Below are positions 1 to 22,736 of a stretch of DNA of 64,000 bases, in pieces (the first letter of the stretch is position 1; each line of letters begins with the position of its first letter). The notes below the pieces were generated by a model. That model made no database searches, was not told the DNA's origin, and worked only from the letters and a program-made list of their open reading frames with translations. Both the position numbers and the translations under genes were made by a program. Origin of the DNA: Lytechinus pictus (lineage: Eukaryota); NCBI RefSeq assembly GCF_037042905.1, contig NC_087245.1, positions 4,962,001 to 5,026,000 of the forward strand, in the 5' to 3' direction.

Positions 1-971
1 ATCGGCCTGTCTACCTGTTCTGTAGACATGAGTTATATCTTAGCAGAGTGTAACGCCATACCCGAATATTCAACCTAACACACGGGAGCAGGGGCGAAAC
101 AGGGGGTCTATTACCAGATTTTGATTGGTCTGTACGCCAACTCTGAACATTATTGTTGGCGAGCATTAGTGCAAAGCTCTATGCGGCAGTAGCGTAAATG
201 AGTTTGAGAATGAGGAGCAGAGTATGGCATGTGTGGCAAAAAGTTGCTTTAAATAAGTCACAGAGAGCGAAGCAAGCTAGAAAAACAACCTTTTCATGAG
301 AATCTAAATTTGAGACAGATTCTGACATGATATCCAGAAAATATCATCAATATCTTACTTTTCCTTTGCTTCTCTTTCCTCTATTTTTCAGTCTTTTTTT
401 TTTTTTTTGGGGGGGGGGGCGATGGCCCAAACCTTTCTATCTCTACGCCTATGCTATTATTTTGTGGTCCGGAAACCTCTTGTTCTAATGTCATTTTAAA
501 CCTTCATACAGATGGTCTCTATTTTTATCAATTTGCGGGTATAAAGTTTTTACAAAACACATCGATTCGACGCAGTTGCGTAATATACCAAATATTTTGC
601 TGGGGCACAACATACAAATGTGGAAAAAAATGCAAAACTTCCCATGCGAGCGAAGCAAGCCAGAAAAAAATTGGCTTTTTGAAATGAAATTCTAAATATG
701 TGATAGATGTTTCATTATATCCGGCAAATAAAAAAAAATGCTTTCCATTCATTACATTCCGTTGCCTCCTTTTATTTCACCTTGTAAGCCAGTGCTCATT
801 ATCATTAAAGTTAAGATCAATACAGGAAGGGTCCCTACAGGGGGCACATTATATAGGGTCTGGGGCAGCTTCTGTAAGGACATTTAAAGTATATTAGGGG
901 GATATGTCTAGCCGTTGGTTAACTTTTTTTTGTCCTGATTGCGCCCGGTATTATATAAAAATATAGTAAGC

Positions 972-1358
972 TTAAAGTGATTGGTTAACATTGGTTTGAC
1001 TTTTAAAAAAATCTGAGCTAGAAGGTCACACTTGTCACCTGTGTCTGTGATATGTTACAAAAATGAAGCCCAGAAAAAATTGCGTTCGAAAATAATTATT
1101 TAGTGCTTCAAATATTGAAATATAAAGTGACCGGAAACACCATCTTAATTTCATCCCATACACTTATGTGTACTATTTAGGCGTCTACAAGACGCCTATT
1201 TACAAAATCTGGGTTTGCCTTGTAGTTTTAGCTTTTCATTCTCAATAATAGTTGTTTTCAGGGTTTATTAGTTCTAATACATGCACTTGTACACATGTTT
1301 CATCTTGGTTTGAGAATTTTTTAAATCGGCTGCTCACAAAGTTAAACAATACCTTTAA
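972..1358. mobile_element. TTAA-flanked non-autonomous DNA transposon (Kolobok-like MITE)
   Basis: Left end ttaaagtgattggttaacattgg; right end reverse-complements to ttaaaggtattgtttaactttg. Imperfect TIRs with TTAA on both sides. Confidence 0.6.
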
Positions 1359-1692
1359 AGTAGACTTCAGACATAATGTTATTTGCCATCCATCATTCTT
1401 CCCGTTCTTTTTTACTACTCGGCAGCCCGGTGGTATTTTTAGTTCTTTTTTTTTATGTCCCTTTTCTTGATATTCCAATTATGGTTCATTTCATTGTACC
1501 TTCATTTCCCGCTTTGGTTTGCTACTTTTTCATCTTTTAATTTATTTCACTTTCTTACTAATCCTGCTAGTATTAGTATTTCGGAATGATTTGTTCTTTC
1601 TTTAATGACTGCTTGGTTATTTTTTAACCATCGATCTTAAAACTATTTGTGGAACTTGTAACTTTTTATATGTGGTCTAATTTTATTTATAG

Positions 1693-1818
1693 GCTGAAGA
1701 ACACCCACTTGAGTCTGTTCCTCAGGAAGAAAACTTGCCCGTAGACATGATAGATGCAACCTTCACTGAAGGCCTGGTGTATGCCATTGGTCCTTTCAAT
1801 TGTGGAGATATTGTTACA
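1693..1818 (+). CDS. Internal exon of an unknown gene (AEEHPLES...CGDIVT)
   Basis: Acceptor ttttatttatag, 126-nt open frame, donor gtaagt at 1819. Phase 0 matches the exon at 2663. Confidence 0.6.
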
Positions 1819-1849
1819 GTAAGTTTTATTTGGTATTGGCTAAACTTAC

Positions 1850-2035
1850 ACCGCTTTCAGTATACGGTCCAGACCAGCTCCGGGCCAAGTCTTTACATTT
1901 TTAGTTTATGAATGGGTGATTGTAAAAGTAGCGCCGCCTAGCTCTGCTATGTAGGTACTGAACGCTAATTGTGCGGCGAACTATTTTAATGCGAGCCTGG
2001 TGTAGACCAAAAAATACAGAGTTACTGAAAACGGT
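1850..2035. mobile_element. Small MITE-like inverted-repeat element in an intron
   Basis: accgctttcagta at 1850 pairs with tactgaaaacggt ending at 2035. Confidence 0.35.
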
Positions 2036-2662
2036 TTTAGATACGGGAAATTAATGCTAACAAGTCATGTCCTATTGTGTGTGAAAGGCGTGCCCAGGTA
2101 GGCCGACTCATAATTCAATTTTCAGCGCATTTAACTATTGTGTGAATAAAAGAAAGGCAAAAGTCAAGCTTAAAAAAGTACACACTACGTTGCCATGGAA
2201 ACCCTATATTCATGCAACATGTCATTTTCTTATGCGTAAATAAAACGTACAATATACTGTACTTGCATGAAATACTACATTTTCTCTTAATTCTATAACT
2301 GGACTTGGGTCTATCTCAATCCATTGGATTTGGAAATGAGTTGTAAAGGATCCAAATTGACTCAATTACAAGATAATAGTAAGGTAATCGATCGTTGACG
2401 AATATATTTTGCCCAAAAAATGTCCTCATTGATTCCTTATTACCGTCATATTATTTTCCTAAACACGTCAGATATAACAAACATGATTGTTTTGTTAGTA
2501 ACGAACATCAATATTATAATTTACTATCCATGCAAACTTTCACTCTCATTTGTGAAGGACGTCTTATTCAAAGTATATGCCTATAAGCCTACCGTACGCT
2601 AATCAATAAAAAAAAAACGAATAACACGATTGTTTATGGCTTACACATTTTATTTTTTTCAG

Positions 2663-3265
2663 GTGACAGTCATGAACATTCAACAAGCCTTAATCAGAGA
2701 GCTCAACATCTATACGGATTCGGCAGTTCTTTCTCCCATAATCGATGATCAACTCAGTGATGATATCCTCATTACTCTACCCTTAAATAAGGTCTCAACT
2801 TTAACGGTGAGAAATAAGGGGATGATAAGAAAAGAAGGTGCAAGAATGAAAGAGAATGCCTATAGAGCAACGTATATTCAACTTAACGGTAAGGAGTACA
2901 GGGACAGGTTTTTCAAAAACCAAAGGAAATATGCCATCCTTTCTGCAATCACCAAAACGTTCAAAGGGCGAATGTCTCAGAGGACATTTGAATTAGGGCC
3001 CATGATTCCAGGAATAGATGACATATTACTACCGTTGTTGGAAAGGTCTGTAACATATAGTTACAGAAAGTCCAACATACAAATTCTAGACCGATTCCTA
3101 GGCAACAAATGGGACACAGTTTTCTCTGGTGGGTCGACCAGATTCGTCACCTGTATAAGATTTCATGTTACAAAAGATAGTCAGCTCACTGGTATTGTAA
3201 AGGTAGGCGAATATCCAGGCACAGTTTCTTGTAGGGAAACCATAAAGAATTATATAAAAAGTTAG
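2663..3265 (+). CDS. Terminal exon of an unknown protein, possibly an accessory gene of the adjacent transposon
   Basis: Acceptor tatttttttcag at 2662, then 200 open codons (VTVMNIQQ...KNYIKS*) with globular-looking composition. No family recognised. Confidence 0.6.
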   Translation: MTVMNIQQALIRELNIYTDSAVLSPIIDDQLSDDILITLPLNKVSTLTVRNKGMIRKEGARMKENAYRATYIQLNGKEYRDRFFKNQRKYAILSAITKTFKGRMSQRTFELGPMIPGIDDILLPLLERSVTYSYRKSNIQILDRFLGNKWDTVFSGGSTRFVTCIRFHVTKDSQLTGIVKVGEYPGTVSCRETIKNYIKS

Positions 3266-5126
3266 AACAGCAAGCAATGTACATTCCTAGTGAGATTGTA
3301 ACCCATCCGAATTGTAAGCAATCATGATAACAAGCATAAAGTGTTGTAGTTACAAAAGCATGAAAGGAAATTTTTGAGGAAAAGCTAACTAGGATTTAAC
3401 GAGACCTAGGTTTTGATTTATTCAAATTCAACGTAACATTTTCATGCGTCTGTAACACTTTGGATATACTGTATATCTAACAACTTGAGGATTTTCATTA
3501 GAGATAATAAACAACACTCCGTTTGAACCAAGTTGGATTACTTCTGAAGAAAACATCCAAGCGTGATCTGAATCTGATTCTTTTTGAGCGGTTACGATGT
3601 GAAAATTTATGATGAAATAATTTTTGCAATTAGAATCAGCATTGACTTTTATCGAGCATGTAGGCCTATTGGCGCTTTGTGGTGTGAGACCAAGGGAAAA
3701 GTGAAAACATCTGGGTTTTTTTTCACAGCTACTCTTGCCATGCATGTTTCAGGTCATCATGGTCATAATAAAACTTTGTCATTCACATTTGTTAAAAGAG
3801 TTAGGGTCTACTGCAATATTCACCTTGCGAAACGCGGAGATTTCATCCAAATAAATATCATTGAAAAGAAGTTAATGAATTTTCTTTGGTTCTTGGGGGA
3901 AAACCCTTGAATAACCATCATGACCATCCTAGTAAATTAATGTTATAAAATAACATGTGGCATGTATATTGCTAATGAAATATTCATGAATACATGAGTG
4001 GAATTGGAATGTTAAAGGCTGGGGAAGTTTCACATACTTATGGCTTTCAACCCAGTAATCGGCTATCAGTAGATGAGAGGTTCAAATCTTGCTCGTTCCT
4101 AGACTTTTTTTTTTTACTTATCCAACAGATTGATCAATGCGATCTTATTTACTGGGTTGTAAGCCATAAATATTAACAATATTTTGAATGATTTTTTTAC
4201 TAAAATAATGAAAATCTGTGAAATGTCAAAACTTTGTTTCTTCATGTCCGATTTTGATCAAATCTTAAGTATTTTGTAAGTGTGATTTTCAAGTCACATT
4301 ATTTTTCATCCTGGAGTACCCGTTTATTTTTCATTTGTGTTGGTTGTCATGGTTGTTCAGATATAAAGTTGAATATTCGACTCTGATGAAAATCGCTCGT
4401 TGATCAGTCGTTAATTTGCTTGTTTTAGTTATAACAGTCATGACAGTTATAACGATTGCGTGGTATAGTCTTCCAATTTACCAAACTGCAAAAATATCGT
4501 ACCAGTTCATGCATCAATTCACAATTCTAGCTGCTCTAAATCAAGTAATAATTTCTGGTTTACATACTCGAAGGCATTATTACCGCTGCCAAGTCCCAAA
4601 TGTTGTCTGGAATCGGTTTGATTGTTAAACAAAATTGTCTAAATTTGCCCAATTTAAGTATTAGTCGTATATCGGAATAGGAATATATAGGAATACAAAT
4701 TGAATTTCGTATTGATTTTGATGTTTACGAATGTTTTTTTTTTTTTGTATTTTACTGTTTTCAAATGTGTACACCATTTTTCATTGTCTTTTATACCTAT
4801 GTCCCCTCGCCTCGATATCACAGCTTTTGTATGAAACGTCCATAGATTTATTGTATAAGTAACACTGCAATCTTATGTATTCCCTATAAATTGATCATTG
4901 TGGTGCAAAGCAAGATAGCTTTCTTTCCTTTCTAATAGCATTTTCACACGAGAGAAAAGCAAAGAGATTGAATCTTCTGTCTCTGAGTAAACCAAAATTA
5001 TCAGTTATCATGATTATTTGAGATGTGTATACAAGTTCGTTAGGTGTGCATGTAAATGTATAGCCGTTTCATGATTTACGCTTTGTTGGCTGCTTTGATT
5101 TATTTTCCTTCTTTATTTTCCTGCCT

Positions 5127-6482
5127 ATGCCAAATTATATTGAGATGCTTTATTTTAAGAATGCCCTTCTTTGTAATGAACACTACCATGGTGCTCAAAG
5201 AGCAACTTGCAGTATAGACACTCTTGCTGAGCTTTACTACTTTGGAATCTACCCACATGATGATAATGACAGTGGAGGAAATGAGCTTTTGGCTCAGCTT
5301 ATTAAACTATGTAACTTACGTGACGAATATGGTCCCAGTTGCAAAGTGCGAGAAGAGCTTTGGGATTTCCTTGTTAAAAAGATACCTAGCTTTTACCCGA
5401 AAGGAACATCTCACGCTGAAATAATGCAAGCATTTGATTATTTTCAGGATAGTTCCTGTAAGTTCATTGTACAATACACGGGACAGAGCACATGCCTTTC
5501 TTGTAAGCATTCCTCAAATGATAAAGTAGCCCTAGATCCTGTTCACTTGTTTGACCATGGAGTGAACTCCTCACATTTTGGAAATGTAGGTAAAGGATTG
5601 GAGTTTATTATGGAGAGGAATGCTGTATATAAGGGCAAAATAACAAAATGTTTGACTTGTCATAATCCAGGTATGACAGATTTCATTATAACTGAGACCA
5701 AAATGCCTAAATTCCTTCTTGTCCAGATGATTTTGGACCAAAATTCGAAAAATCGCCAAACACCACAACCTGTCATAAACGAAGAAATGATCGTTAATGG
5801 CTTCCGATATGAACTGCAAGGAGCTGTCCAGGCAACTCCGGGACATTTTTATGCAGTCGTGAAAAGGGGTGGGAACTTTCTTGTCATAGATGACATGAAA
5901 ACATGCATCAATATTTATAACTCATTTGCTGCTGCAGTTACCAGACAAAGGGTACTCAATGACAAGCGGTCATTGGTTGTCAATGATAAACATGATGGGG
6001 TACATGTTCTCCTCTTTGTCAAAAGAGATCATAGTACCTCAACTAATTCTAACAACTCAGCAAGCATGGCAAGTAGAAGTGGTGGACCATGTACCAGCCA
6101 GAAACTTGGTATGAATGTTCCTCCGCAACAAGAGGTTGAAAGATCTGATTCTAAATGGGACAATGGTCCACCGCCTGGTTTATTCAGGCAATCCCCTTTG
6201 CCACGAAAATCATGCAGTCCAGCAGTCCATCCGACAGGCTCTGAGATCGATGCTTGCGGTTCGGATTGGATCACACCCCAAAAGTGGCGAAAGAAGAGAC
6301 TTTTGTTTGGTCACAGTCCACCTAAGAGAGGAAAGTCGAGTTCACCAAAATCAAGAACACCATTAGCAGAAAAACCACTTGAAAATCACAAGTCACCCTC
6401 TAGTCATTCAGGGAAACCCCCAACTGAAGAAATATCGGACTCAAGTTCTTGTATTACCTCTTCTATATACAAAACTGTGTAA
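5127..6482 (+). CDS. USP/peptidase C19-like cysteine protease domain plus Ser/Pro-rich tail; probable N-terminal part of the transposase polyprotein
   Basis: 451-aa ORF. Cys box FKN...ATCSIDT (C28), two CxxC zinc knuckles (C123/C126, C175/C178), 'MPKFLLVQ' strand, His box YELQGAVQATPGHFYAVVK...LVIDD (H240, D255/D256). Confidence 0.7.
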   Translation: MPNYIEMLYFKNALLCNEHYHGAQRATCSIDTLAELYYFGIYPHDDNDSGGNELLAQLIKLCNLRDEYGPSCKVREELWDFLVKKIPSFYPKGTSHAEIMQAFDYFQDSSCKFIVQYTGQSTCLSCKHSSNDKVALDPVHLFDHGVNSSHFGNVGKGLEFIMERNAVYKGKITKCLTCHNPGMTDFIITETKMPKFLLVQMILDQNSKNRQTPQPVINEEMIVNGFRYELQGAVQATPGHFYAVVKRGGNFLVIDDMKTCINIYNSFAAAVTRQRVLNDKRSLVVNDKHDGVHVLLFVKRDHSTSTNSNNSASMASRSGGPCTSQKLGMNVPPQQEVERSDSKWDNGPPPGLFRQSPLPRKSCSPAVHPTGSEIDACGSDWITPQKWRKKRLLFGHSPPKRGKSSSPKSRTPLAEKPLENHKSPSSHSGKPPTEEISDSSSCITSSIYKTV

Positions 6483-9400
6483 AGATTTCACTGCTTCAGA
6501 TACCCCTCCGACCAAACACAATTCACCATTGAGTGCCAGAGATACATTTCAAGCTAAAATTGGTCCAGCCTCCACCTTTTCTAGTACTCCTCTTACAAAA
6601 TTTGTGTACGATTATTCAGGAACACCCATGACTAAATCAATTCCCTTAAGTTCAAGTACACCCATGAGTAGATCCCGATCACCCTCTAGCATGTCTAGAG
6701 CGTCAGGTTCCCCGCCACCTGAAATAGGTTCATTCTCCAATGCTTCATATTCACCAGTTAATAAGTATGTCTATGAAGATATCAACAGGTCTACAGATTG
6801 CGTCGCACCGAAAACAAAGAAGAGGCTCTTGTTCGATGATCATATTCAATTGAAGAAGAGACAAACCGATTCACTGTCCGCTAAGTTCGATTTATCCCCC
6901 ATTGGTTCAGATTATTCTTTTCAGTCACCCAAACCCGAATCGTCTTCCAGTGCTTCAGATACACCTTTGAATAATCCAAGTTTTTCCTTTGGTACTGCAA
7001 GTACATCCCTTGGCGATCATTCATCAGCCAGTGCTGATGTTACACCTAAGAATAAATCAAGTTCACCAGCCTCTGACTTTTCGTCTACAAAGAATTGTAA
7101 CACTACATGTACATCCACTGAATCAGATACATGTAATCCGTCAGATGAGACCATAGCAACTCAAAAACAATATAAAGCTGAATCTGAGAATACTGGAGAC
7201 AAATCTTTTATCAAATTAATTCGGGGTATCAATAAATATTCTAAACACTTTACAAACATTCTGGGTCATAGCATCGCATATACAATCAATGATGCAGATC
7301 TATACATTTCTTGTGATGTACTCAAAGTAGCTGGGGTATATTTGAAAGCTGGATATCGTAAAATTGACAAGCTCTTATCAGAAGAGTATACTGGCGAAAA
7401 GGCAACCTTTCTAGTTGAGTGGAAGAAGAGGACATTCATTCTAAAAGAAGCCCTCCTGATAGTATTACACAAACATCATTATGAAAAACAGAGAAAGCAA
7501 CTTGTCATAGACCATATAACAAATTTGAACCCAGGACTGGATTTTGAGAACATTCCAGATAAATGTAATGATATTGAAAGCGTCAAAGATGACACATCAA
7601 TAAAGAATGAAAATGATAACAGAAAGGAAAATTGTCATAATGGCATTCAGTGCCCATCCAATGCCCATGCTTATTTTACCTTGTTTAGTACGAAGATACC
7701 TTGCTTTTCCACAGAAAGTAACATTTACCTAGAGGTAGAACCAATATTCAAGAATGTTGCAATCCATTACCATATTAAGAAAAATAGCTGGAAATATGTG
7801 GACAAGTGTCTAACCAAACATGATATTGATGTTAAAATTGCTTTTTGTAAGAGAAGATGCCACATCAGTTTTGAAGCACTTGTTGTACTGTTGGAGAAGT
7901 TCAGACCGGGTGATGGTGAAAACAAGAAAAGAGTGGTGAAAGAACTTACACACCAGCTCTATATACTATCGCTTTTGGGATTAGATAAAAAGAAAGAAAA
8001 AATGCATTGGGCAGAGTCTTCTTTGAATGACCCCGAAACAAGGAAACATGTGCTTGATCAATTGGCAAAACAGAAATTGACGAAAGATGAGATTGACCAA
8101 GTACTTAAGACTACTCAAGCATCCAAGACTAAGTCAAAATCTTCAAATAAAATGTCTATTACAGAAAATGTGTATGAAATCTATAGATCTTCACATCCTG
8201 TTACAGAAGAGGATCTCATCTATATGAGTGATAATTATAGTGGTTCGCGGCTTCTAAACCAATTTCGGAAGAAAATCCCTGGGATACTGCCTAGTTATTC
8301 AAAAGAAAAAGAAGCAAGGCAGAATTATGTTAAAAGTTTTGGCGCTATCCTCAATCCACGTCGTACCGCTACTGGATGGTTCATTGATCCATGTCGGTTA
8401 TTAGAAATGTTGACATATAAATACCCCTTTCTCACAAGCAAATTATCTGTCAGACTTTGGGGAGACGGGAGAGAGATTGGCGGCCGCCAAAGCACATTCA
8501 TGGTTCTCTCAATTTTGAATAATGATCTTTATCTGCATGATATCTTGTTCCAAAGCCCAAATCACTTATATCCATTTACAATTTTCTATGAGAGTGATTC
8601 TCGTGATAATTTAGAAGAGAACTTATCATCTATCAACATTTGCAAATCGTTGGAAAAATTTTGTGATCCATCGAATATATATTTGTGTGGTGATGAGATG
8701 TTCTTGATAAAGATTCTAGATGGCTCTGGAATATTAAGTCCAACATCAGAAAGAGGCTGGAACCTGTATCATGCTTGCATGAAGGAAGATAAAAAAGAAG
8801 TGGCAGCGAATGGAATAAGAACGGATAGAGAAGTCAAAATCGACAGGAAGTTTCCCGAATCACTCGTACAAGTCCCTTTGAGTAATGTTGTATTTGACCC
8901 TATGCATGGTTTTACTAGGATTGTAGAAAAGCTCCTGAAATTGGAAGTAGAAAAAATTTTATTTGAAGGGAATAAAGAAGAACAGAAATCTGGATCGAGT
9001 TCAAAGAAAATTCTGATTGAAAACTTAGTGACCAATATAAACAACAGGGGTGTGCGCCAGGGAAACTTTCAGATTCATTTTGACAAAAGTGGTCGCCCCG
9101 AACAGATCTCTTTGAATAAGGATCATGCTTTAAGCATTGTAGGCATATTGAATAATGATTCCATTGTCCATGTTTTGCATAATGTTGTTCCAAAAAGAGA
9201 ACTGATATCAGCATCACATGAAATCGTAAGACCTTATTTTGACTCGCCAATTATTACAGAATTTGATGTTGCTGCCAAAATTTTTGACACTATATTTCAT
9301 ATGTATACTATTTTGAAAACAGAACCAAGTCCAGTTTTGCTGGCGGGCAGACCAAAAGGTTCATTAAAAGAGAATGATTATACTTGGGGATATGACGAGA

Positions 9401-10635
9401 CCACCAAGCTTCGTTACAAAGAACACGCAGAATGTTTCTATAAATTGGTCAACTTCCGTTACACGTGGTCAAACCTAACACCCTACATGATCAAATTCAT
9501 TGATTATGCTCCATATTTTATGAATAATTTGCCGTTTCCTATGAGCCGTTTCCAAACTGAAGGGGGAGAACATTTAAATTATATTCATAGTTCGTTTTAT
9601 TACAAGCATACTACCCGCCATGGTGGAAAGATAAAAAAAGACCCTCAATATTCATTTCTCCTTAGCATGTACCGCAGATTGCATTATGAAATTGGAAGTG
9701 AAGAATCAAGTACACATTTTCAACATTTTGTCAAGAGGCATATGGCTGCAAGTACAATTCAGGCATTCTACCGGGGATATTCTGTAAGGAAATCTTTGCA
9801 AAACGCAGGCTGGCATTCTAATCCACAGAGTGCCAGTGAAAAGACCCAAAATCGTGTAATCATGAGGGAATTTGAGTCTTGTAGGAATCCCTTGAAAGAT
9901 CTGTCCCAAAATCTACCAATTTTCCACAAGAAGCATTTTGTTTTATCAGGTAGTGTTCCTCCAGGACTTGGCCAAAGATGGACACAGGGGAGTTTGAGTG
10001 AAAAAATCGAATTGCTTGGTGGAAAGGTGCGGAAATGTCTTCCAGGAAATACTAAAGGACGATCTACCAAAATTGTGTATGTATTAGTTAATACGGATGC
10101 AATAAAAAAGAAGAAAATACCAGATATTGTGCATGAGGCTTTCTTAAAACGGCAAATCGTTCTGGATTATAGGTATATATTTGATTCTATTGAACAAAAT
10201 GCCCGTATATCATTTGAATCATATATTCCGAACTTTGCTAACTCCTTCAATGAAACCAATCAGAACAAGCCAATAAATGCCCAACATTTTGGCCATAAAT
10301 TGGGTGTTGCGTCAATTCTAAAAAAGCGAGGGAGGCCTAGAACAAGAAAAACCAGCACAGTACCAAAAACAAAGTTCCCTCGAAATGTAGTCCTGATGTA
10401 TGGCCATATTAAGAGGAAAGAGTACCTTGAAAATGTTAATGTATCCTTTTCAGATCAAGGAAGTCTTATAAAGAAATATTGCGATGAGTTTAGAAAACTT
10501 CCACTTGAACAGAAAATGCACTTTGAGAGATTGTGGAATGCCAAGAGACAAGATCACCTGGAAAGAATTGAAAAATTACAGCAAATAAAATCATACAATA
10601 AGGTGACGTCTCCATTTTACAAAGGATTACGGTAG
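6379..10635 (+). CDS. RAG1-core/Transib-like DDE transposase fused to two Bro-N-like repeats, IQ, BRCT, AT-hook and HMG-box
   Basis: 1418-codon open frame (first ATG 6628). Motifs in RAG1/Transib order: LWGDGR (D, 8464), FQSPNH, LCGDEMFL (D, 8692), VVFDPMHGFTR (8896), LTPYM...SRFQTEGGEHLN (E, 9568; compare RAG1 ITNYFH...AWASEGNESGN). Then IQAFYRGYSVR (9757), BRCT-like segment (~9919-10227), KKRGRPR (10321) and HMG-like segment (~10378-10560). Confidence 0.75.
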   Translation: MKITSHPLVIQGNPQLKKYRTQVLVLPLLYTKLCKDFTASDTPPTKHNSPLSARDTFQAKIGPASTFSSTPLTKFVYDYSGTPMTKSIPLSSSTPMSRSRSPSSMSRASGSPPPEIGSFSNASYSPVNKYVYEDINRSTDCVAPKTKKRLLFDDHIQLKKRQTDSLSAKFDLSPIGSDYSFQSPKPESSSSASDTPLNNPSFSFGTASTSLGDHSSASADVTPKNKSSSPASDFSSTKNCNTTCTSTESDTCNPSDETIATQKQYKAESENTGDKSFIKLIRGINKYSKHFTNILGHSIAYTINDADLYISCDVLKVAGVYLKAGYRKIDKLLSEEYTGEKATFLVEWKKRTFILKEALLIVLHKHHYEKQRKQLVIDHITNLNPGLDFENIPDKCNDIESVKDDTSIKNENDNRKENCHNGIQCPSNAHAYFTLFSTKIPCFSTESNIYLEVEPIFKNVAIHYHIKKNSWKYVDKCLTKHDIDVKIAFCKRRCHISFEALVVLLEKFRPGDGENKKRVVKELTHQLYILSLLGLDKKKEKMHWAESSLNDPETRKHVLDQLAKQKLTKDEIDQVLKTTQASKTKSKSSNKMSITENVYEIYRSSHPVTEEDLIYMSDNYSGSRLLNQFRKKIPGILPSYSKEKEARQNYVKSFGAILNPRRTATGWFIDPCRLLEMLTYKYPFLTSKLSVRLWGDGREIGGRQSTFMVLSILNNDLYLHDILFQSPNHLYPFTIFYESDSRDNLEENLSSINICKSLEKFCDPSNIYLCGDEMFLIKILDGSGILSPTSERGWNLYHACMKEDKKEVAANGIRTDREVKIDRKFPESLVQVPLSNVVFDPMHGFTRIVEKLLKLEVEKILFEGNKEEQKSGSSSKKILIENLVTNINNRGVRQGNFQIHFDKSGRPEQISLNKDHALSIVGILNNDSIVHVLHNVVPKRELISASHEIVRPYFDSPIITEFDVAAKIFDTIFHMYTILKTEPSPVLLAGRPKGSLKENDYTWGYDETTKLRYKEHAECFYKLVNFRYTWSNLTPYMIKFIDYAPYFMNNLPFPMSRFQTEGGEHLNYIHSSFYYKHTTRHGGKIKKDPQYSFLLSMYRRLHYEIGSEESSTHFQHFVKRHMAASTIQAFYRGYSVRKSLQNAGWHSNPQSASEKTQNRVIMREFESCRNPLKDLSQNLPIFHKKHFVLSGSVPPGLGQRWTQGSLSEKIELLGGKVRKCLPGNTKGRSTKIVYVLVNTDAIKKKKIPDIVHEAFLKRQIVLDYRYIFDSIEQNARISFESYIPNFANSFNETNQNKPINAQHFGHKLGVASILKKRGRPRTRKTSTVPKTKFPRNVVLMYGHIKRKEYLENVNVSFSDQGSLIKKYCDEFRKLPLEQKMHFERLWNAKRQDHLERIEKLQQIKSYNKVTSPFYKGLR

Positions 10636-11068
10636 TTATATTGGAACTACAGCTTGACGTGTTTCTTCTCAACAGGTAGTCACGGTGCTCAGTTGTATGA
10701 GACTGCTATTTATAATGTACATGCTCTGACTTCTCAATGATAGGTCATTTCAAATTGCAATGAATTGAGATGGTATGAAGTTAAATTTAACTTTATTCTA
10801 CAGAAAGTATTAATTTTGCTTATTAGGAAGATTAAAAGGATAAGTTGAACCTAGTATTCAATTGAAATGTGAGCAGTAATTTCTATATAGTCTATAGCCT
10901 TTAGACATATTTATATAATTCCAAAAGTATATGTTCAATACGAACATACTGAAGTGACAGTCTCTTTGTCAATCATGGTGAGTTTTCCAAAGTGTAGTGT
11001 ATACCAATGTATACACGGAGATGATATTGATAATGATTTTTTATCCTAGCCTCTTTCGCGCCCAGGCA

Positions 11069-11341
11069 ATGGTGACTGATGATTATACATTAGGCCCGGG
11101 CACTCACCAGGGTCCCCAGGGTATCAATCTTTTCGCTCGGGTCGACCAAAAGCAGCGACGTCTTGAACATGTTGAAGAGGCTATTTTGTCAAAGCTGTTC
11201 ACATTGGGAATCAGGTATCGCCTAACTTACCAAAGAAACGGCGGCCTATATTGTGTCGAGTACCCGTCTGGATTGTGCCTCATTAATGTAATACATTGTC
11301 TAGTTCCCCTTATGTTTTATTTGCAAGGGATCATAATATGA
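11069..11341 (+). CDS. Possible small unknown ORF or exon downstream of the transposase
   Basis: GC-richer open frame MVTDDYTLGPG...LQGIII* after a plausible acceptor ttttatcctag. No homology recognised. Confidence 0.3.
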   Translation: MVTDDYTLGPGTHQGPQGINLFARVDQKQRRLEHVEEAILSKLFTLGIRYRLTYQRNGGLYCVEYPSGLCLINVIHCLVPLMFYLQGIII

Positions 11342-11695
11342 ATGATATTCACATATATCAAAAGAACTTGGTTGTATTGAACTGAACTGAAATTATCATG
11401 CTATCACAATTTACGTTTCCGCTGTTTGTTGTTGGTGCTCTCTTTAAAGATAGATGGGTTCAAAAAGTTACTTTGTCCGAAATGAGGTATTATCCATCGG
11501 TTATATCATAGTTTACAACATTCTCTCACTGATGATTTTACAAGAGCAATTCATTCTCACATATACATTCGGGTACATTCAGCCCACATTTGAAGTACAT
11601 GAACGTCTGAAACAACGGCTCATATATTTTGTGACTGTGAAAATGTTTCCGCCTGTTGCAAATTTTAATTCTAATTTCATTTTGTCTAATTTCAG

Positions 11696-11995
11696 AAAAA
11701 AACTTTTGATGGTCCGGATAAGTTTATATCCTACTTATTTTATCATTGAAGCACTTCATAAGTTGTTCCAAACTTTGGACCATTTAGATCATTTGTTAAG
11801 AAGGAAAAAGAAATTGAATATTGTTTGGCAAAAAAAAGACAAAAACTCTCGGCTCATTTCAAGAATTGGGAGTTTGAATTTTATCTTTGTCATCTTATTG
11901 TCTATCCATGTATCCTGTTAACTGTGTATGAGCATACAAATACCTTCCATCAAATTTGCTGTGTATATAAAGATCATGGTTGTGTCATTGCATAA
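11696..11995 (+). pseudogene. Possible decayed coding exon
   Basis: After acceptor ctaatttcag one frame reads KTFDGPDKFISYLFYH*STS*VVPNFGPFRSFVKKEKEIEYCLAKKRQKLSAHFKNWEFEFYLCH...CVIA*. Protein-like but with two early stops. Confidence 0.25.
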
Positions 11996-12989
11996 AACTT
12001 TCCACTTTTTGTATTTTTTAATATTTATTATTTCTTTACTAATGATGTTATGATTACTTGTAAATATTGTAATTATGTTTGATTTGTTATTTTTTGTTTA
12101 TAATTGGTCTTTGTTGACCCAATACAAGATACATACAAAATAATAAATGAATGTCTCTTAAGATTGCTCAACATACGGACAAACATTGCATTTCGCAGGC
12201 TGAACTATAAATATGTTGGCATTTAAAACGTCACTCGTTTTCAAGCTTGCTCATATTTTTTTTTAATTTGTGAAACATTTTTTACATACGACCTATGCAA
12301 TTCTTACGTGCCTTTGGATTTTTTTTTTGGAAAATGTAGAAAGTTTTTTACGACATTTTTGTGACTGTGATTACCGTGGGTATAAAAATGAGTGTTGATG
12401 TGTTTAATACTTGCATTTGAGCTTTTTAGTATTAGTTCATTCATTTAAAACCATAGCATAATTAACCTTGTAATAGAAGGTGATTATCCTGTATTTAATT
12501 GTCTATAAAAACACACGAAAGAATATAGGGATGTTTTTCACGGCCGGGTGATAGACACACGTACAGTGTAACTTAAATTTGCCAAAATCTGGAAGAGCGG
12601 CATACTTTTCAAACCTGGATATGTGAAACTGTATATAGTTTACCCTACCATGGCATGCAAATAGATTATTTGAAGTTGTCTTTAGAGTAGGGACTAAAAG
12701 CAAAAAAAAAAAAATAGGGAACTCAAACTGAAACTGAATTCACAGCCCTGTGAGGGAAAGATGATTGGCCATTTTGAATGTACATGGGCGAATGATATCA
12801 CCCCCCCAAAAAAAAAAAAGATTAATTCATGATTAATGTACCTACTATCAAGTGAAAGATTTTGTCAAACACTATTGTGCAGAAAAACTGATGATATCCC
12901 GTGTATTTGTTGTTGGCAGCACTTTTGGTTTAAAACACAACAAGAAAAATATAGAGGAAAGCGCTGTACAGGGGCTTGGTTCGAAAGAA

Positions 12990-13579
12990 TTAAAGGGGAA
13001 TGAAACCTTTGGAACAAGATACCTTGTGTGTAAACAGAAAAATCAAAGAAACAGATCAATGAAAGTTTGAAAAAATCGGACAAATAATGAGAAAGTTATG
13101 AGCTTTTGAAAATTGCGATCACTAATGCTATGCAGACCATCCCATTGACAATGCGATAAAGATGTATGATGTCACTTGTGAACAACTCTCCCAATTACTT
13201 TAGTTTATTTTTCACGTAAAATGCCTCTTTATCACATCTATCAGCAGATCATGTGTTCTTTCTATAGGAGGCATGCAATACAGATTTCTAAAGAATACAT
13301 CATGGATAAAGAGTTTGTATCACCATAAGAAAAAGCAAAAAGAGACATTTTGGGGGTATTTCATAGTCCATCAAAGGGAAAGTTGTTCACATGTGACATC
13401 ACCCATCCTTGTCGTATTGCCAATGTGAGGATCTCCATGGCATTAGTGATTGCAATATTCAAATGCTCATAACTTTCTCATTATTTGTCCGATTTTTCTC
13501 AATCTTTCTTTGTTCGTATTCTTTGATTTTTCTGTCTTGACACAAACCTACTTGTTCCAAAGGTTTCATTCCCCTTTAA
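12990..13579. mobile_element. Kolobok-like MITE, family A
   Basis: TTAA-aggggaatgaaacctttggaacaag ... cttgttccaaaggtttcattcccct-TTAA. Long imperfect TIRs; same family as 29841-30431. Confidence 0.85.
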
Positions 13580-13797
13580 TGGTTTGTAGCATTATTTTAT
13601 CATTTTGTATTTACTATCTACACGTACAAGGATGTAGGCATTACGCATTTTGTTATATTTCAATATTTGCAAACCTATATTTGAAGTGTATGGAATTGTT
13701 ATTTGTAACTTTCCTTGAAACTTTAATCGCTATGGATGCAAACCATTGAGTAAATTTTTGCCTTTATGTGTGCTTAATACTCTGTAAATATTCTCGC

Positions 13798-14768
13798 AAG
13801 TGGTATACTCCAGGTTGAAAATAATATGATTTGAGCGAATAAAAAATCAGACAAACGAAACACTTAAAGGACAAGCCCACCCCAACAAAAACTTAATTTG
13901 AATAAAAAGATAAAAATTCAACAAGCATAACACTGAAAATTTCATTCCTCCCTGCATGAGCACGTGGAATTCCATTTTAACATATTATGCTTCAGGCAAG
14001 GATGTCCTAATCTTCAAATTCGTAAAAATTGAAATATTGTATAATTCAAACAATACAAAACAAAAGAAATAGTGAGTGAGTGACATCATCGACTCTCTCA
14101 TTTGGATGTAACTGGCTCGTTCATATAACTGTTTTGTTAAAAATAAGCGAAACTTTGAAATGTCATAACTTTCTTATTTTACATCAGATTTTCATGAAAT
14201 TTTCAGCATTGTGCTTGTCTGATTTTTCTCTATTGATTCAATTCAACATTTTTCTTAGGTGGACTTGACCTTTAAGATTGGATCAAAATCTTACAAGGAA
14301 TGTCGAAATTGTAATATCTGAAACAATTCTACATGTGTGCATGTGTCAATGGGTATTCAATGAACAAACTTATAATTATAATTAATCACTCACCATTTGT
14401 TATTTTATATTTCATTACATGAAATTATGTTTATCCATATTTTGTCCAAGAAGAAATAAATGGAATAACATATGATTCAATTCATTAGATATTCATAGCT
14501 GCAACTTATTTTTTATTATATTAGGGAGACATACACATATGTATGAAAGAAATCAATGTGATTTTATGTAATAACATAACAAAAAAAGGAAAGTGGCGAT
14601 GTAAAGTTATCAACCTATGTAATGGGTATTCATAAAAACGTGAATCTGACTGTATTTTTAACATTGCTATGCATTAAAATTCAATAACTTCGTTATTTGT
14701 TATAAGATTTTGATTAAATTTTCAAGTGAATTTAGATAGGATTACTTTCAGCCTGGAGTACCATTTAA
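13798..14768. mobile_element. Degenerate TTAA MITE (outer element) interrupted by a nested MITE
   Basis: Left aagtggtatactccaggttgaaa versus right tttcagcctggagtaccatttaa. Internal sequence resembles 36824-37239. Confidence 0.55.
13864..14275. mobile_element. Kolobok-like MITE nested at a TTAA site
   Basis: TTAA-aggacaagcccacc ... ggtggacttgacct-TTAA. Confidence 0.75.
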
Positions 14769-15799
14769 ACTTTTTATATGTATACATACAATATATATTT
14801 AAAAAAACGACATTGATAAACCATTTTCTTCTGACATGTATATCTCATTACTTACATAAAAAGACTTGTGATTTGTCGAACTTGCTTAATAAATCATGAG
14901 AACTCTATTTCATTGGAGCATCTTCTAGTCATTTGTTGTTAGTAGGAGTTTTAAATCAGTGTCTAGAATTCATAAAAAACTAAGAAAGGTCATCATGGTA
15001 ACTACCAAATGGCTCTTTAACTCCTCTAGTCATTCATACTCACTTCTAAGAACAATTTCTCAATTTTCTTACAATTTCATACTCTAATTTTCTTGTGTCT
15101 TTCAAGTCTCTCTGTACGATAATTTGACCCACCAACAGAACACACTGAATGAGAACATTCAAAAAGGGTGAACAGCTTTTATAGAGGATAATAAATGGCT
15201 GCGAACATACCCCTTCCCGAAAAGTCAGAAGAGAGACAGTCCGTTACATGATTAGAGGGAGTGGAAACGCATAAAATAATAGGAAATGTAAATCAGATGC
15301 ACAATAATAATATGTGAGATGTGTGGTCGATGGCTTTAGTGTAGTACCCAAAAAAAAAATCCATCCCCTTATCATTACCCAGCATATTTCACGATATGAT
15401 CCTTAATTTAAAGAAATATATAAATAAAAGGGCATGCGATGTATTTACATGAAAGGGAGAGAGGTGTAAATGACCAAAAAAAATGATAGCCCGAGTGATA
15501 GAGATAAGAACAAAGAGAGAGGGAGAGGGAGAGAGAGAGAGAGAGGGGGAGAGAGTGGGGCAGGGAGATGAACAAATCTAACTCGCACCTTCAAAATGTC
15601 TGAGTATAAGACTATTGACCCATATCAGGGTTTGCTTCGCTGCGGTTAACTAGTAGAGCAATAATGAAGTCCCCAAGGGGGTCTATGTTTACTCAGGGAT
15701 TAGCTATCCTGATAACAGTCTTGGGGTTGGAATACATCTCAATGACTCAATGTTTAAACGTGAAGTTTTCGTCATGATGACTGACAACCACCTTCCAAT

Positions 15800-16226
15800 A
15801 TGAATAGCGAAACTCTTCTACTGTTATGACTGGCGAACTCCTTCTAGTACTATTATGACTAGCGAACCTCTTTTGCTATTATGACTGGCGAAACTCTTCT
15901 ACTATTATGACTGGCGACCCTCTTCTAATATTATGACTGGCGAACCTCTTTTAATATTATGACTGGCGACCCTCTTTTACTATTATGATTGGCGAACCTC
16001 TTCTACTATTATGACTGATGGCGACCCTCTCTAGCGAACCTTATGGTTAATGAACCCCTTTCCTCCTTATGACTATAGCGACCCTCTTGTTTGATTATGA
16101 CGAGCGACCCTATTCTTTGATTATGGCTAGCGACCTCTATGAGCATAGACCCTTATAAATAGCGACCTTATGGTCATTATGACTAGCGGTCCTTATGACT
16201 AGTGGGTATAATAAATATGACTAGCG
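15800..16226 (+). repeat. 26-bp minisatellite (TATTATGACTGGCGAACCTCTTCTAC) degenerating toward the 3' end
   Basis: About 8 well-conserved head-to-tail units, then degraded ttatgactagcgacc cores. Confidence 0.85.
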
Positions 16227-16586
16227 AGTGCACCCCGGCTCCGCTCCCGTGATCAATCTATTCTTACAAGAATTTGGCCGTGACAAATCCCTACGTTTAG
16301 CTTATCATGCTTATGCACTGCATCATGGGAGTTTAGTTATAATAAGTCAATTTATGAATAAGTGATTCAAATGACTTTCATATATGATTATAACTTTTAT
16401 TATAAACGAATCAAAACATCCTTTAAATACACTTTCGTGAATATGGGAGGGGGTCATCTGGTATCTTTGTGGAAGCGGGGGAGTTTGTACAAAAATATTT
16501 TGGCCTACCGTATTCTTTAAATTAAGTGTACGATGAGTTACTGATGACATTGATCAAAATGCCGTTAATGAAACACTTATCTTTAC

Positions 16587-16604
16587 CATGGAGCTAGCTC
16601 CATG
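16587..16604. mobile_element. P-superfamily-like transposon excision footprint
   Basis: tctttac|CATGGAGCTAGCTCCATG|tctttac: 18-bp palindrome with a 7-bp direct repeat. Confidence 0.6.
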
Positions 16605-17319
16605 TCTTTACCATTTTATCTATTATTTTGTAGGGGACTTAAATCACATTGATTAATACAACAATGCAATAAATATCTAAAAAAAACTTTTTATATGCAT
16701 CATTGTAATATTTCCATGTTTTGGAAGTTTATATTGTGGCCTGTGATGGCCTATATGATCATAATTCATAAGGCACCCTTATTCCCGATAATCAAGATCC
16801 TATTTTTGTTTTCATTCTCATCTCACCTTCAACCAGCAGTGAGCATATGAGTTTTCATTGAACAAAACTCGACTATTTAATCTCTATTTGCTCTTTTGTG
16901 TATAATTCTTGTTCATATTTTCTACTAGTTTATATTATTACCCTTATCCCTTAATATACCCTTATCATCCACTGTAATTAACGCATATTAATTCTAAACG
17001 AATGATACGAATCAACATTTTAAAACTCGCTAACTACGCTCACCGCCGCAATTTCGGTCGTAATTACAGGCTCCCTTGAAAGACGATTTGGTAATGATCA
17101 TTCTGTCTTCTAACTATGGAAAATTTGCTAAATCATCTCTACTGTAATCCAGCTAGTATAGCTTAATTACGTCACAACAAATCAATTACAATAATGATAG
17201 CCATCGAAAAAACCCATCGCAGGTATGTACCCCTGTAGCTTGTGAAGTGATAATTACACGTCACTTGAAAGAGGTAAAATTTTAGGGCAACATTCTTTTT
17301 TTTCATCTACTGAAAATTT

Positions 17320-18600
17320 ACTCGCTCGCCGCGACGCTCGCTCGCATATTGATATTAACTACAATTAATTACTTTATAGCCATTTTAAAAATTGCCATAG
17401 GCCTTTAACTGAAAGATGGTAGTATGATGTACATGGTCATATACCCCGCCCTTGGTGTGGGGGTGCCCCCCCCCCCAAATTTTGAATTTTCAGGTCATAT
17501 TACTATCATCCCCCTCGGACCAAGATTTACGCCAGTGCTATATATCAATCAAAATTCAGCGCTTTGCATTTACATTAGATACGCATCCTGTTCATGGTTA
17601 TATACAATTAAAAGGTGCTTAGAATCTCGGTTAGAATATCCCATTTTAGGTCTAAATCGCCAAAAAAAAATCATCTCGCATTTCGTATTCGCATGCATGG
17701 AGCTATATAGCATCCATACGTGTTCCTTCATGTTAAACGCTGTTTAACATGTACCCTACTTTGGGATAGTATTTTTTTTAAATCCAGCTCGCATCAATTC
17801 TTTATTGAAATACACAGCCTGTTCTTTGTTTCAAAATGTGCTTAAAAAGTATAGTACAGACTCGAATGTAATAGGTCCTAAATTTCCAGCTCTCGTCATC
17901 AGATCTATTTCGGCATCTTAGGAAAATGGCTAGCGCACATAATTTCATGATTAAAACACTCAACAAAAGTGAATCCTGTTTTCAGGTATAATCTCAAAAG
18001 TTTTTCAACTCACGAAGTTGGTGCTCGCATTATCTTCCTCGCTGCAAACAGTTATAAAAGGTCTCTTTTCACGGTCAATAGGCCTATATCAAAAATTTCA
18101 TCTCGTGCTCACACATCTTGATACATTCTTTACTCATCCAGTGACAATGGTCAATTTTTAAGTCTGAATAAATAATAATAATAAAAAGATGAGCTCGTGA
18201 ACACTTTGCGCTCGCATTATTTTTTTTTCAGAATAAAGCTAAGATGTACTTGAAGCTTCGCGCTTGTATTATGATTGATTATATGTATTTCCTTATCATA
18301 TTCTTAAAAAGATCCCTTTTCATGTCATATAAAAAATTTCAGCTCGCGCTCCCATTATTGTTTTCATTTGACCATGATTAAGAAATTTTCTCATATAATG
18401 TTCTATTTTCAGATCTGAATTCATGAAATATCCAAAAATTTGAGCTCGCGCTCGCATTATTCATTTTTTTCCTGTTTCTGTACGATAACACAAACTTATC
18501 GCAAAGCTAAACAAAGGTGAATTTTCACTTCAAATCCCCCGGCGTATCGGATGGGCTCGTCGTTTGTGCCCCCTGATCCCCCCCCCCCCCCCCCACCGAT
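17320..18600. repeat. Degenerate interspersed repeat with recurring gctcgc(gc)tcgcatt motifs
   Basis: Many spaced copies of (a)gctcgc...gcatt and poly-C tracts. Confidence 0.5.
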
Positions 18601-19450
18601 AAAAAAAAAAACGAGAAAAAAATAATGAAAAGGAAATGGCTAAAATCTGAAATATGATATTATTTTCTGGATATTAGATCTATATCAAAATCCATAATTC
18701 TATGCCAAAATTGATCTGCTCTGCATATCCATCTGTGGCTGTGCTATAGTCATGGGCCAGTGGGCTGTGTGTGTTTCTGTGGGTACCCGGTACCGATACC
18801 GGTACCTAACCTTGTCTGACTGACAAACTCGCATATCCGATCGGATCACGGAACGCAGCAGCTGCATACCGAATATGCATGCATTGTCCCATGTATTGGA
18901 TATCATCGAGGGATGGAGAATTGTCGAACGAGATAGGAACATTGACAATTTGACATTGTTGAAAATCAATACAATACTCATAGCTAAAGTCTGTAAAGTG
19001 TAAGTCTACTTTTTTGTTATGGTTATATGATATAATTTATAACAGCCAATGAATTCTTATTTCATGCTTTTGTATGGACTTTGATGGTATGATTCTGCAG
19101 ATTCGTAGCTTAACCATTACCAGCGTTAGACAATTACAAATATCGATATTATCGGTACATGCAACTTTTATGCACGCATGTCCAATGCATTTTTCACAAT
19201 ATTCGAATTCCACAGGGGCCGAATCACGGATGTAGCATATTGGTTGTGCCAGGCAAAATGTATTATTTTTTAAAACTTATTTCGAGAGCTACTTTCACAA
19301 CCTAATTCCTCAACAAACGTTAAGTTACTTAGTCTTAGAAATCTAGTAATGGTCAGTTCCCCCATGTACGTCTGCGCGGTCTCCCAAGTCTGGACACCCG
19401 CGTATCTGCGCGATTCTAGTAAAAATAAAAAAAGAAGATACGCAACTAAG

Positions 19451-19579
19451 TTACCTCGAGCGAAGTTCGTGCAGGCTCCACTTCACTACCGCTACACTAC
19501 ACTCCACCTACCCGAAGGTGGAGCGTAGTGTAGCGGTAGTGAAGTGGAGTGGAGCCTGCACGAACTTCGCTCGAGGTAA
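19451..19579. mobile_element. ~130-bp near-perfect palindromic MITE
   Basis: ttacctcgagcgaagttcgtgcaggctccac ... gtggagcctgcacgaacttcgctcgaggtaa. A related right arm occurs at 54229-54269. Confidence 0.75.
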
Positions 19580-21455
19580 TACTACTCGCTAATACGCAAC
19601 GAGCACAAACTTTACACATGCAATACATAGACAGGTATTCATAAAAAAATCTGACTCAAAATGGTGAAAAAATAATGAATTCAGGGCATTTCATGTGACG
19701 GCCTCAAAATACAGCCTTTCTCATCAAAATCCCCAAATCGTGTGCAAAGTGAATGAGTGCGCAGGCATGGGGTACCATTTTTTTTTCAATCTGAAAATGA
19801 CTGCCCAAGGTTTTTTCAAGAAAATCCTATATTTTCTTTCATTTTTTAATGAGAAATTTGGTGTACTTTCATTAATATAAGGAACATTATTAACCAAAAG
19901 ATTTTGTGAAAAAAGAAGAAATTCATGTTAAATCTTAACTCAAATTGTTAGGAACGCAGACTTGGGGCCCACCATCATACAGGTACATACCTACTTTATA
20001 CTGCCCAACTCCCCTAAAAGAAGGGGTCATGGGCAGGGCCAGGGGTAATAAAGTTAGTATTACTATACTATAGTATTATTTAATTTAAATATTAATTTAA
20101 AGTTCAAGTCCACTGAACTCTGAAGAAAAATGTTGATTTAGACAAAATAGCAAGTTAGATTGAAGAGAAAATGCTGAAAATTTCATATAATTGGATTGGT
20201 ATAGACAGAAACAGAAACAGAAACCACTCAAGGTTCCAACTCGGGCATCGTTCACAGGAAAGTGCAAGGCACAACACCCGCAAAGACATTGTGACATTGT
20301 CATTAGATTTTACAATACATTCCTAAATCCTAGTGAAATCACTTTTTGCTATGACACTACTTACCAAACGATGTGAATCCTTACTTTTCCTCTTGTTTGT
20401 CTCTCTATGAAAATAATACTATATAGATATAGATGATAAGATCTAGGCCTGTATTTCATTATTGATGCCAAAGAAGGTTGAATCACATATCCAGATTTTT
20501 CGCATATAGAGAGCTGCAAGAGGGCGTGCGATATTATTTAATTATAATACATAAGATTTATATAGCGCACTTTCCATCTTTTCATTTATACGTTGCTTGT
20601 TCACATCGGAAGTTGTATTGCTGGTTGTGTTCTAGGCGCTCAGCATTTTTACCGGTATTCCTCTTTTTTTTTTTCGCTGTCAAAAGATGGCGTAGACTAC
20701 TTCACCTTATAAGTTTTTACATAAGATGCAACCTATTGATTTTTTGTGTACAATTTCCTATTATGCACCGACGACTTGAATAGAGACTGTCGTGCTGGCG
20801 AAATGTTTTCACTCTTCCAAGTCAGTTCTATGATGTCATCAGGCTGGCTGATTCTTTTGCTACTTCCATCGCGATATTTGGCATATGATTCGACGATTGA
20901 CGGATATTTGTTCCAAAGCTGTTTCCTATCTGATTTCTTGGCACAATATGAACAGTTTTTTTGCTGTGGGGTTCGGTTCTGGTCATTATAATTTTGATAA
21001 TGACCAGAACCGAACGAACCCCACTGCAAAAAAATTGAAAGAGTCGATGATGTCCCTATTTTTGTTTTTATTGTTTATATAGAATATATTATATTTTTTT
21101 ACAAAAAGGACCCTCTTGATTAAGCCAAAAAATGTAAAGTAATTGCACGTGTTAAGGGAGGATTAAAACTATATTTCACAAGACAATGAGGAGATAATTA
21201 AAATATTACGTAAGAAATGGGAAATAGTTCTTAGAAAGTTATGACATTTGTAAATTTTGCTTGATTTCCCAAACAGTGATGTGCACGTCCATGGTCAGTA
21301 CGCAAATAGACTGATGACATCACCTACATGTACTCACTATTTTTTTTTTATCACATTTTTTTTCCCCACTTAAATGTACTAATGATGATTAATCATTGCA
21401 TGTTTTCCATCTTGATTTTCTAGGCCTTTGAAGTTTGGTGTAGACGCAATGTAGC

Positions 21456-21603
21456 ATGGGTGTAAGACGTCTTATCTGTTTCCGGAGACGAAGATGGTCA
21501 AGGTACTTGTGCCTGCTTGTTTTTGCCACAGTTATCTATTTCATCTTCCAGGGAACTTACTTGAGGGCACTCAACAATAACAGTGCAGATAAATTAGAAA
21601 TTG
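21456..21603 (+). CDS. PRKCSH-like: Glucosidase II beta-like protein, coding exon 1 (basic tail plus TM/signal anchor)
   Basis: MGVRRLICFRRRRWSRYLCLLVFATVIYFIFQGTYL...; donor gtaag at 21604; phase 1 joins the exon at 22430. Confidence 0.75.
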
Positions 21604-22429: not shown

Positions 22430-22646
22430 ATGGAGGAGATAGCATTAAAGTCAAGCATGAAAAATCACTTACTATCTTGGGAGTTCGATCAGATGACCTA
22501 TTACACTACGTACCAGACAAGGATGGATTGTTCCATTGTATTGATGGATCAGCTAAGGTTCCTATGATGGCTGTCAATGATGAGTACTGTGATTGTCCAT
22601 TGGATGGATCAGATGAACCTGGTACAGATGCTTGCCCACATGCAAG
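22430..22646 (+). CDS. PRKCSH-like: Glucosidase II beta-like, exon 2 (N-terminal LDLa-like Cys/Asp module)
   Basis: LGV...FHCIDGS...VNDEYCDCPLDGSDEPGTDACP matches the PRKCSH N-terminal signature; AG/GT boundaries. Confidence 0.9.
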
Positions 22647-22736
22647 GTGATTACAACATTCTAGTAGTTGTTTTGTTTCTTACATGGCATTGTATGTGTG
22701 CTATCTGAATGCACTGTGTGAGGGAAATGACAACAC

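Follow-up and report, generated by a model that had tools for sequence, protein, structure and literature searches.

The window, a 64,000-nt stretch of the Lytechinus pictus genome, encodes a conserved USP-fold cysteine protease of a family that is normally part of a transposase chain with a RAG1-fold core. An initial annotation, made from the sequence alone, had proposed a USP-like cysteine protease of ~300 aa at position 5127 that is free of introns and linked to a transposon, and this reading was confirmed. The ATG at 5127 opens a frame of 451 aa (ORF1) with a stop ending at 6482; the longest frame found in 200 shuffles of window positions 3001-13000 was 194 codons. Inside the protease domain, which makes up the first 300 residues of ORF1 (Table 1), the frame is continuous and no intron is required.

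The predicted structure of the domain (pLDDT 95.0, pTM 0.92) has the papain/USP fold that the initial annotation had anticipated. Foldseek ranked USPL1 (E 3.3e-13), USP18 and USP46 at the top, within a range of 3e-13 to 3e-12, at TM-scores of 0.5-0.6 and with 10-17% identity to solved USPs. The VIA Z scores were 17.6-16.2 for USP14, USP12, USP35 and USPL1 over 227-260 residues. A wide structure search returned 36 USP-fold chains (Z 17.6-12.2), followed by viral papain-like proteases at Z 10.9 or less. The matches in the viral structure library were giant-virus USPs of comparable strength, and the Atlas placed the protease next to UCH clusters (0.95). The Ulp1, OTU and VTD protease classes were ruled out by these fold searches. 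Single-sequence searches of PDB, Pfam and PHROGs returned no match for the protease, and the Pfam UCH profile search proposed with the initial annotation came back negative, the domain matching 0 families and lying below the UCH cut-off. Among 33 family members, three match UCH_1 (best E 1.4e-4) and three match Peptidase_C98.

The fold is that of a USP, and the choice between C19 (ubiquitin) and C98 (SUMO) is a tie in the Foldseek, Z, profile and Pfam searches. The USP deubiquitinases of MEROPS family C19 (USP8, USP12/46, USP14 and USP18) have the fold in common with the window protease (Z 16-17.6), along with the Asn/Cys/His/Asp order, the His-aromatic pair and the four-Cys finger. The window protease differs from them in its low identity, its place below the UCH cut-off, the extra Cys/His residues in its Cys-box insertion and the transposase fusion. 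The SUMO isopeptidase USPL1 (C98) is likewise compact and is the top Foldseek match, with profile E values of 1.9e-4 to 2.3e-4, but its Z (16.2, rmsd 6.8) does not exceed that of the C19 enzymes, and a 33-row profile scored USP8 at E 1.4e-4 versus 2.3e-4 for USPL1. Any SUMO preference of the window protease is putative; of the earlier label "USP/C19-like", the USP part stands and the C19 part is not settled.

Relatives were collected from 1.84 billion representatives, of which 103 matched at E up to 0.001. The domain alignment had 68 rows, namely the window domain and 67 proteins that span 200 or more of its 300 residues. Among the rows having a residue at each position, Asn12 (codon at 5160) was conserved in 59/61 and Cys28 (5208) in 62/64; His240 (5844) was conserved in 67/68. 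Asp255 (5889) was found in 61/65 rows, the remaining four having Asn, and Asp256 (5892) in only 42/65. The initial annotation had named both aspartates; since Asp256 is kept so much less often, we assign Asp255 as the third catalytic residue. The finger cysteines Cys123/126 (codons at 5493/5502) and Cys175/178 (5649/5658) were kept in 66/67, 66/67, 57/68 and 66/68 rows, respectively. The residues named in the initial annotation are located where it had placed them. Of the 58 rows spanning the four positions, 55 retain all of Asn-Cys-His-Asp/Asn, in an alignment that is otherwise variable, with only 16 of 291 columns at 90%. In comparisons with the 33-row profile, the His boxes of USP8 and USP12 lined up with His240 and Asp255. 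In the model, Cys28 opens helix 28-44, His240 opens strand 240-247 and Asp255 follows strand 250-254; the triad geometry is predicted from this fold and the profile alignment.

The gatekeeper aromatic of deubiquitinases (DUBs) sits right after the catalytic His. Phe occupies this position in 64/68 rows, as His240-Phe241 in the window copy. The aromatic gatekeeper of DUBs is named in a part of PMC9741609. At position 96, Asp is found in 44/68 rows and acidic residues are common, but the window copy has His. An insertion in the Cys box, a feature absent from the initial annotation, puts Asn12 16 residues ahead of Cys28. In four family members without the insertion the Asn is at -5 relative to the Cys, and an Asn five residues before the Cys is the usual USP spacing. 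Cys72 was present in 41 of 42 rows with at least three Cys/His in the insertion and in 1 of 13 rows with one or none; three further rows have two. This suggests a putative second metal site adjoining the active site, the rows of the alignment being kin and not independent.

A search with the transposase core among proteins 911-2600 aa long returned 42 hits. In 28 of these, all or part of the protease forms the N-terminus of the same chain of 940-1980 aa, which argues that the protease is the N-terminal domain of the transposase chain and no separate gene. The other 14 show no protease, but their starts all lie no more than 643 residues from the core, and these calls may be truncated. The full layout of the family is protease, S/P/T-rich linker, two repeats, DDE transposase, IQ motif, BRCT domain and HMG box. 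The window copy has no uninterrupted reading frame, as ORF1 overlaps in a different frame with ORF2, a frame of 1422 codons from stop to stop that contains the remaining linker, the two repeats, the core, IQ, BRCT and a basic tail with the HMG-like box. The linkage to the transposase proposed in the initial annotation therefore holds, but not its "directly upstream" position: the core lies ~2.1 kb beyond the protease end, in the other frame, with low-complexity linker between.

The split is most likely a frameshift lesion or an assembly error, judging from the shift of S/P/T-rich coding between the frames. A frameshift that separates protease from transposase suggests that the window copy is probably a decaying copy, which could at most yield the free 451-aa protease. 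We consider it improbable that the split is functional, with the frames joined by a 106-nt intron (6479-6584) or by recoding, or with a free protease intended. GT occurs at position 6479 and a pyrimidine-rich AG, with matching phase, at 6584, but as a donor the former is weak, the sequence in between has the look of typical S/P/T linker when read in the ORF2 frame, and the nearest relatives of the window protease are single ORFs. Recoding at a -1 slippery site was rejected, as the join would need +1 or -2.

Table 1. Coordinates of the features assigned to the element and its linked gene in the window.
Feature	Position	Strand	Basis
Probable earlier exon of the linked second gene	1693..1818	+	AG/GT ends, CGD-IV motif as in relatives (by eye)
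Last exon of the linked second gene, upstream of the protease	2663..3265	+	similarity to P0044 and ORFs of the L loci
USP-fold cysteine protease domain, residues 1-300	5127..6026	+	model, fold searches, profiles, alignment
Cys/His-rich Cys-box insertion: Cys16, His19, His21, with Cys72	within 5127..6026	+	alignment
S/P/T-rich tail of ORF1, to stop codon	6027..6482	+	frame calls
ORF2	6367..10635	+	frame calls, Pfam
Frame switch from ORF1 to ORF2	6460..6490	+	frame analysis
Two weakly similar ~110-aa modules, no assigned family	7204..7980 (7204-7539, 7648-7980)	+	33% over 43 aa, E 0.001
RAG1-fold DDE transposase core	8140..9700	+	model, structure searches, 42-row alignment
IQ-like motif	9739..9798	+	just below Pfam cut-off in the window copy
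BRCT domain	9916..10224	+	weak in the window copy
HMG-box-like C-terminus, approximate boundaries	10378..10590	+	profile, relatives

The model of the transposase core (pLDDT 91.7) matched RAG1 at E 1e-9, and its Z scores were 20.7 for RAG1, 20.0 for lancelet BbRAG1L, 13.3 for HzTransib and 12.8 for the P element. The acidic residues D700 (8464), D776 (8692) and E1068 (9568) of ORF2 are invariant in 42/42 rows and are read as the catalytic triad from their place in the model and from RAG1 motifs. A C(2)C motif and an H(3-4)H motif lying after the second D and ahead of the E are a trait of the CMCT clade, to which Transib, RAG1 and CACTA belong (PMC12730594). In the 42-row alignment neither zinc motif was seen: CxxC is not conserved, the stretch ahead of the Glu has no pair of His, and an HTTRH pair is located after the candidate catalytic Glu. 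Despite its RAG1 fold, the core is therefore not a Transib, though it would operate in the manner of RAG1 and Transib; of the earlier assignment "Transib/RAG-type", the fold is borne out and the membership is not. In several loci (L013-L019, L021, L025, L028-L030) the core lies in exon-like pieces, as in intron-bearing or domesticated versions.

The two ~110-aa modules ahead of the core had no Pfam or PHROG match; we would guess that they bind DNA. Behind the core, IQ scored above the Pfam cut-off in 3 of 41 family proteins scanned and BRCT in 6 of 30. The C-terminal profile of the family matched HMG structures (best E 4.7e-5) and Pfam HMG matches were found in the relatives P0042, P0045 and P0104, the Pfam scan of the window copy being negative for HMG. 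An AT-hook-like KRGRPR motif was spotted by eye ahead of the HMG-like box.

The named relatives are from Holothuria (eight separate gene models), Apostichopus, Branchiostoma and Glandiceps. Thirty loci were fetched. Three of them (L004, L009 and L011) carry protease and transposase in one frame and L001 has them at opposite contig ends; the other 26 had no protease match, many being too short or fragmentary. An unrooted tree was built from 48 rows, comprising the proteases with a known partner and ten others. The window protease grouped with two single-frame fusion proteases (support 100/97). The same protease family is also found N-terminally on two Helitron2-type proteins with DUF6570 and Rep/helicase, P0135 and P0159, and one Helitron protease nests among the transposase-borne ones (support 99/95), so the module has moved between element classes, in one direction or the other. 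A search of longer proteins with the protease profile matched 1 of 4147 word-filtered candidates. A divergent member of the protease family, P0134, is fused to JmjC without a transposase core and represents a cluster of 16, the 15 listed members of which are on contigs of 4.0-4.8 kb.

Among 84 proteins, almost every one has the start of the protease at its first Met or close to it. Three divergent proteins from two hosts, P0104 (162-242), P0042 and P0103, have a ubiquitin-like leader before the protease that ends in Gly-Gly (LTGG, QEGG, MEGG) 7-8 residues ahead of the conserved Asn. In L009 (1272-7574), a single frame of 2101 codons, a 2A-like DVESNPGP stands right before the protease. Motifs of the 2A type occur in retrotransposons, as described in part of PMC3708506. 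Either a ubiquitin-like leader ending in Gly-Gly or a 2A-like motif would give a near-identical N-terminus of the protease, and these leader variants hint that the protease may recognise Gly-Gly.

A linked Tudor-type gene travels with the transposase element. Its last exon in the window is similar to P0044 (E 4e-6) and to ORFs of L001, L004 and L010; a profile search for the gene returned no match at the probable earlier exon. Full-length relatives (L010 3452-4870 and L017 7562-6300) have weak N-terminal Agenet/Tudor-like matches (Agenet E 0.0018, L010 and L017). Relative to the transposase, the gene is upstream in L001 and L004, downstream in L010 and convergent in L011, L017 and L019. RAG2-type Pfam hits were absent from the ORFs that were scanned. 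Since the Tudor exons of the gene were not found in the window, the left end of the element probably lies outside it.

Elements of the CMCT type are expected to have 5'-CA..TG-3' terminal inverted repeats (TIRs) and a target-site duplication (TSD) of 2-5 bp. The window and the flanking sequences of ten loci yielded none: a repeat finder on window 1-20000 gave no convincing terminal repeats, inverted short matches between 1-5126 and 10636-30000 and flank motifs common to the loci gave nothing convincing, and none of three CAC-start candidates had a TSD. L001 has a 41-nt palindrome (6369-6409, perfect 20-bp arms) between transposase and Tudor gene, which was rejected as an element end because it has no counterpart in other loci. 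Inverted pairs in L017 and L019 were rejected because the pairs cross and resemble host repeats, and circularity of L001 from a 69-nt end overlap because the overlap lies within a tandem repeat.

In reads of the host's own species, a decayed copy with 93% identity was found over 5580-6465, and two runs contained a derivative with an internal deletion (6863 to 8605). The diverged copy has an 8-nt deletion right before the His codon. A contig of run X3 is identical to window 4951-5451, and the depth in this run was ~50 for the diverged copy and deletion derivative versus ~2 for the exact copy. The multiple copies, the decayed copy and the deletion derivative suggest that the element has been mobile. 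No RNA reads fell over 5138-6538 in two runs, in the ~6% of each that was covered.

We consider it probable that the protease is a USP-fold isopeptidase tethered to a RAG1-fold transposase, where it strips tags to the benefit of the element. The protease would be active and would cut after the Gly-Gly end of ubiquitin or of a ubiquitin-like tag such as SUMO. Kept tethered by the long disordered linker, it would remove such tags from the transposase or from neighbouring chromatin proteins, leading to slower degradation or looser silencing, while the HMG box and BRCT would hold the complex on the DNA. Since the same protease family is found on Helitrons and on RAG1-fold transposases, a function from which either type of element would profit fits best, and it is plausible that the predicted protease shields the transposase from degradation or takes marks off chromatin. 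Helitron-borne DUBs of another class (VTD) are active, according to part of PMC9741609. An unlikely alternative is that the protease acts at the element's own breaks, with BRCT recruiting it to chromatin marked by damage, where it would take off ubiquitin marks and so steer how the insertion or the excision site is repaired. BRCT is fused in most family members, and a section of PMC2836005 (Bao et al.) suggests a repair function for transposon-borne Ulp1 and OTU, but the same protease occurs on Helitron proteins that have no BRCT match and a different chemistry, so breaks are not the common thread.

Still less likely is a processing protease similar to the viral papain-like ones (which match at Z about 10-11), trimming its own ubiquitin-like leader or freeing the transposase. 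The leaders of P0104, P0042 and P0103 and the 2A-like motif at the same place in L009 would suit such a role, but in most members, including the window copy, the initial Met immediately precedes the domain and there is no leader. Host enzymes, moreover, could cut a ubiquitin-like leader unaided. Processing between protease and transposase, which the initial annotation had raised, is disfavoured and self-release of the transposase is unlikely because the linker has no conserved Gly-Gly: 15 of 30 fused chains have none between protease and core, LxGG occurs in 3 of 30, and there are fewer Gly-Gly pairs than chance would give (27 observed versus 48 expected in the 30 chains). It is very improbable that, instead of a cut-and-paste transposon, the locus is an immobile gene domesticated by the host, or belongs to a virus or to some larger element. 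The missing TIR and TSD, the exon-like pieces of the core in some relatives (L013-L030) and the L001 order of transposase, Tudor gene and protease, which tandem copies or a circle would give, would all be accommodated by this explanation. An immobile gene is countered by the separate Holothuria gene models, by the decayed and deleted copies and by the invariant acidic triad, and a viral element by the lack of any relative among 77 candidate stretches of viral contigs. The argument from missing ends is weakened by a left end probably beyond the window.

Ubiquitin hydrolases on transposons are already known. UCH domains are reported on Helitron2 subgroups in part of PMC11417382, and a section of PMC2836005 describes a Trichomonas protein with transposase_11 and Peptidase C19. 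These likewise combine a protein of a DNA transposon with a USP/UCH-type domain, but differ from the window element in the mobilisation enzyme. The initial expectation that such a protease on a Transib/RAG-type element would be unusual is thus partly true, UCH/C19 domains being reported for other DNA transposons. Ulp1 and OTU on Ginger1 and Mutator (PMC2836005, in part) and VTD DUBs on Helitrons, for which protection from degradation is proposed in a section of PMC9741609, are also cases, as is OTU on Helitrons, of a ubiquitin/SUMO protease on a transposase with the same proposed logic. They are of other protease classes, and the protease is C-terminal in Ginger1 but N-terminal in the window family.

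RAG1, ProtoRAG/TransibSU, Transib and Chapaev share with the window family the core fold, the DDE layout and a conserved His after the second Asp. The window family differs from them in ~10% identity, in lacking the C(2)C and H(3-4)H motifs, in having IQ, BRCT and an HMG box in the chain, and in carrying a USP at the place of RING in RAG1 and Chapaev. Domain layouts of RAG1, Transib and Chapaev, including RING and Chapa domains, are described in parts of PMC4411706 and PMC9435367, and no USP, BRCT or HMG fusion is mentioned in those parts. The partner of ProtoRAG/TransibSU is RAG2-like with kelch/PHD, whereas that of the window family is Tudor-type with no RAG2-like match seen. No description of the USP and RAG1-fold transposase architecture was found in the open literature, though a Repbase entry may exist; the combination of the two, the RAG1-fold core without the zinc motifs and the Tudor-type second gene all seem to be new.

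Tentatively, and with less than even confidence, we suggest that the family is an undescribed transposon lineage beside RAG1/Transib that lost the zinc module and has its own V(D)J-like toolkit, with an anti-silencing USP of a new subfamily. The in-chain HMG box would parallel the borrowing of HMGB1 by RAG, the Tudor-type chromatin reader as second gene would parallel the PHD of RAG2, and a deubiquitinase or deSUMOylase would occupy the place of the ubiquitin ligase RING of RAG1. In the USP subfamily the Cys box would hold a second metal site, and the subfamily would have been exchanged with Helitrons. The zinc-less branch that the family adds to the RAG1-fold transposases bears on the assembly of the V(D)J recombinase. 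Ubiquitin/SUMO proteases recur on unrelated DNA transposons, where their role in transposition is putative. Here the enzyme is a compact USP-fold one, with ubiquitin or a ubiquitin-like tag as its putative target, and its catalytic residues are kept across echinoderm, hemichordate and lancelet hosts. Intact single-frame members of the family exist.

Thirteen further ORFs in the window gave one low-complexity extensin-like match and nothing else. Elsewhere in the window, 972-1358, 12984-13585 and 13863-14276 are high-copy inverted-repeat host elements that were very deep in all four runs, the one at 972-1358 lying upstream of the exons of the second gene. A 26-bp tandem array is located at 15759-16133 and a nested palindrome with 53-nt arms at 19451-19579.
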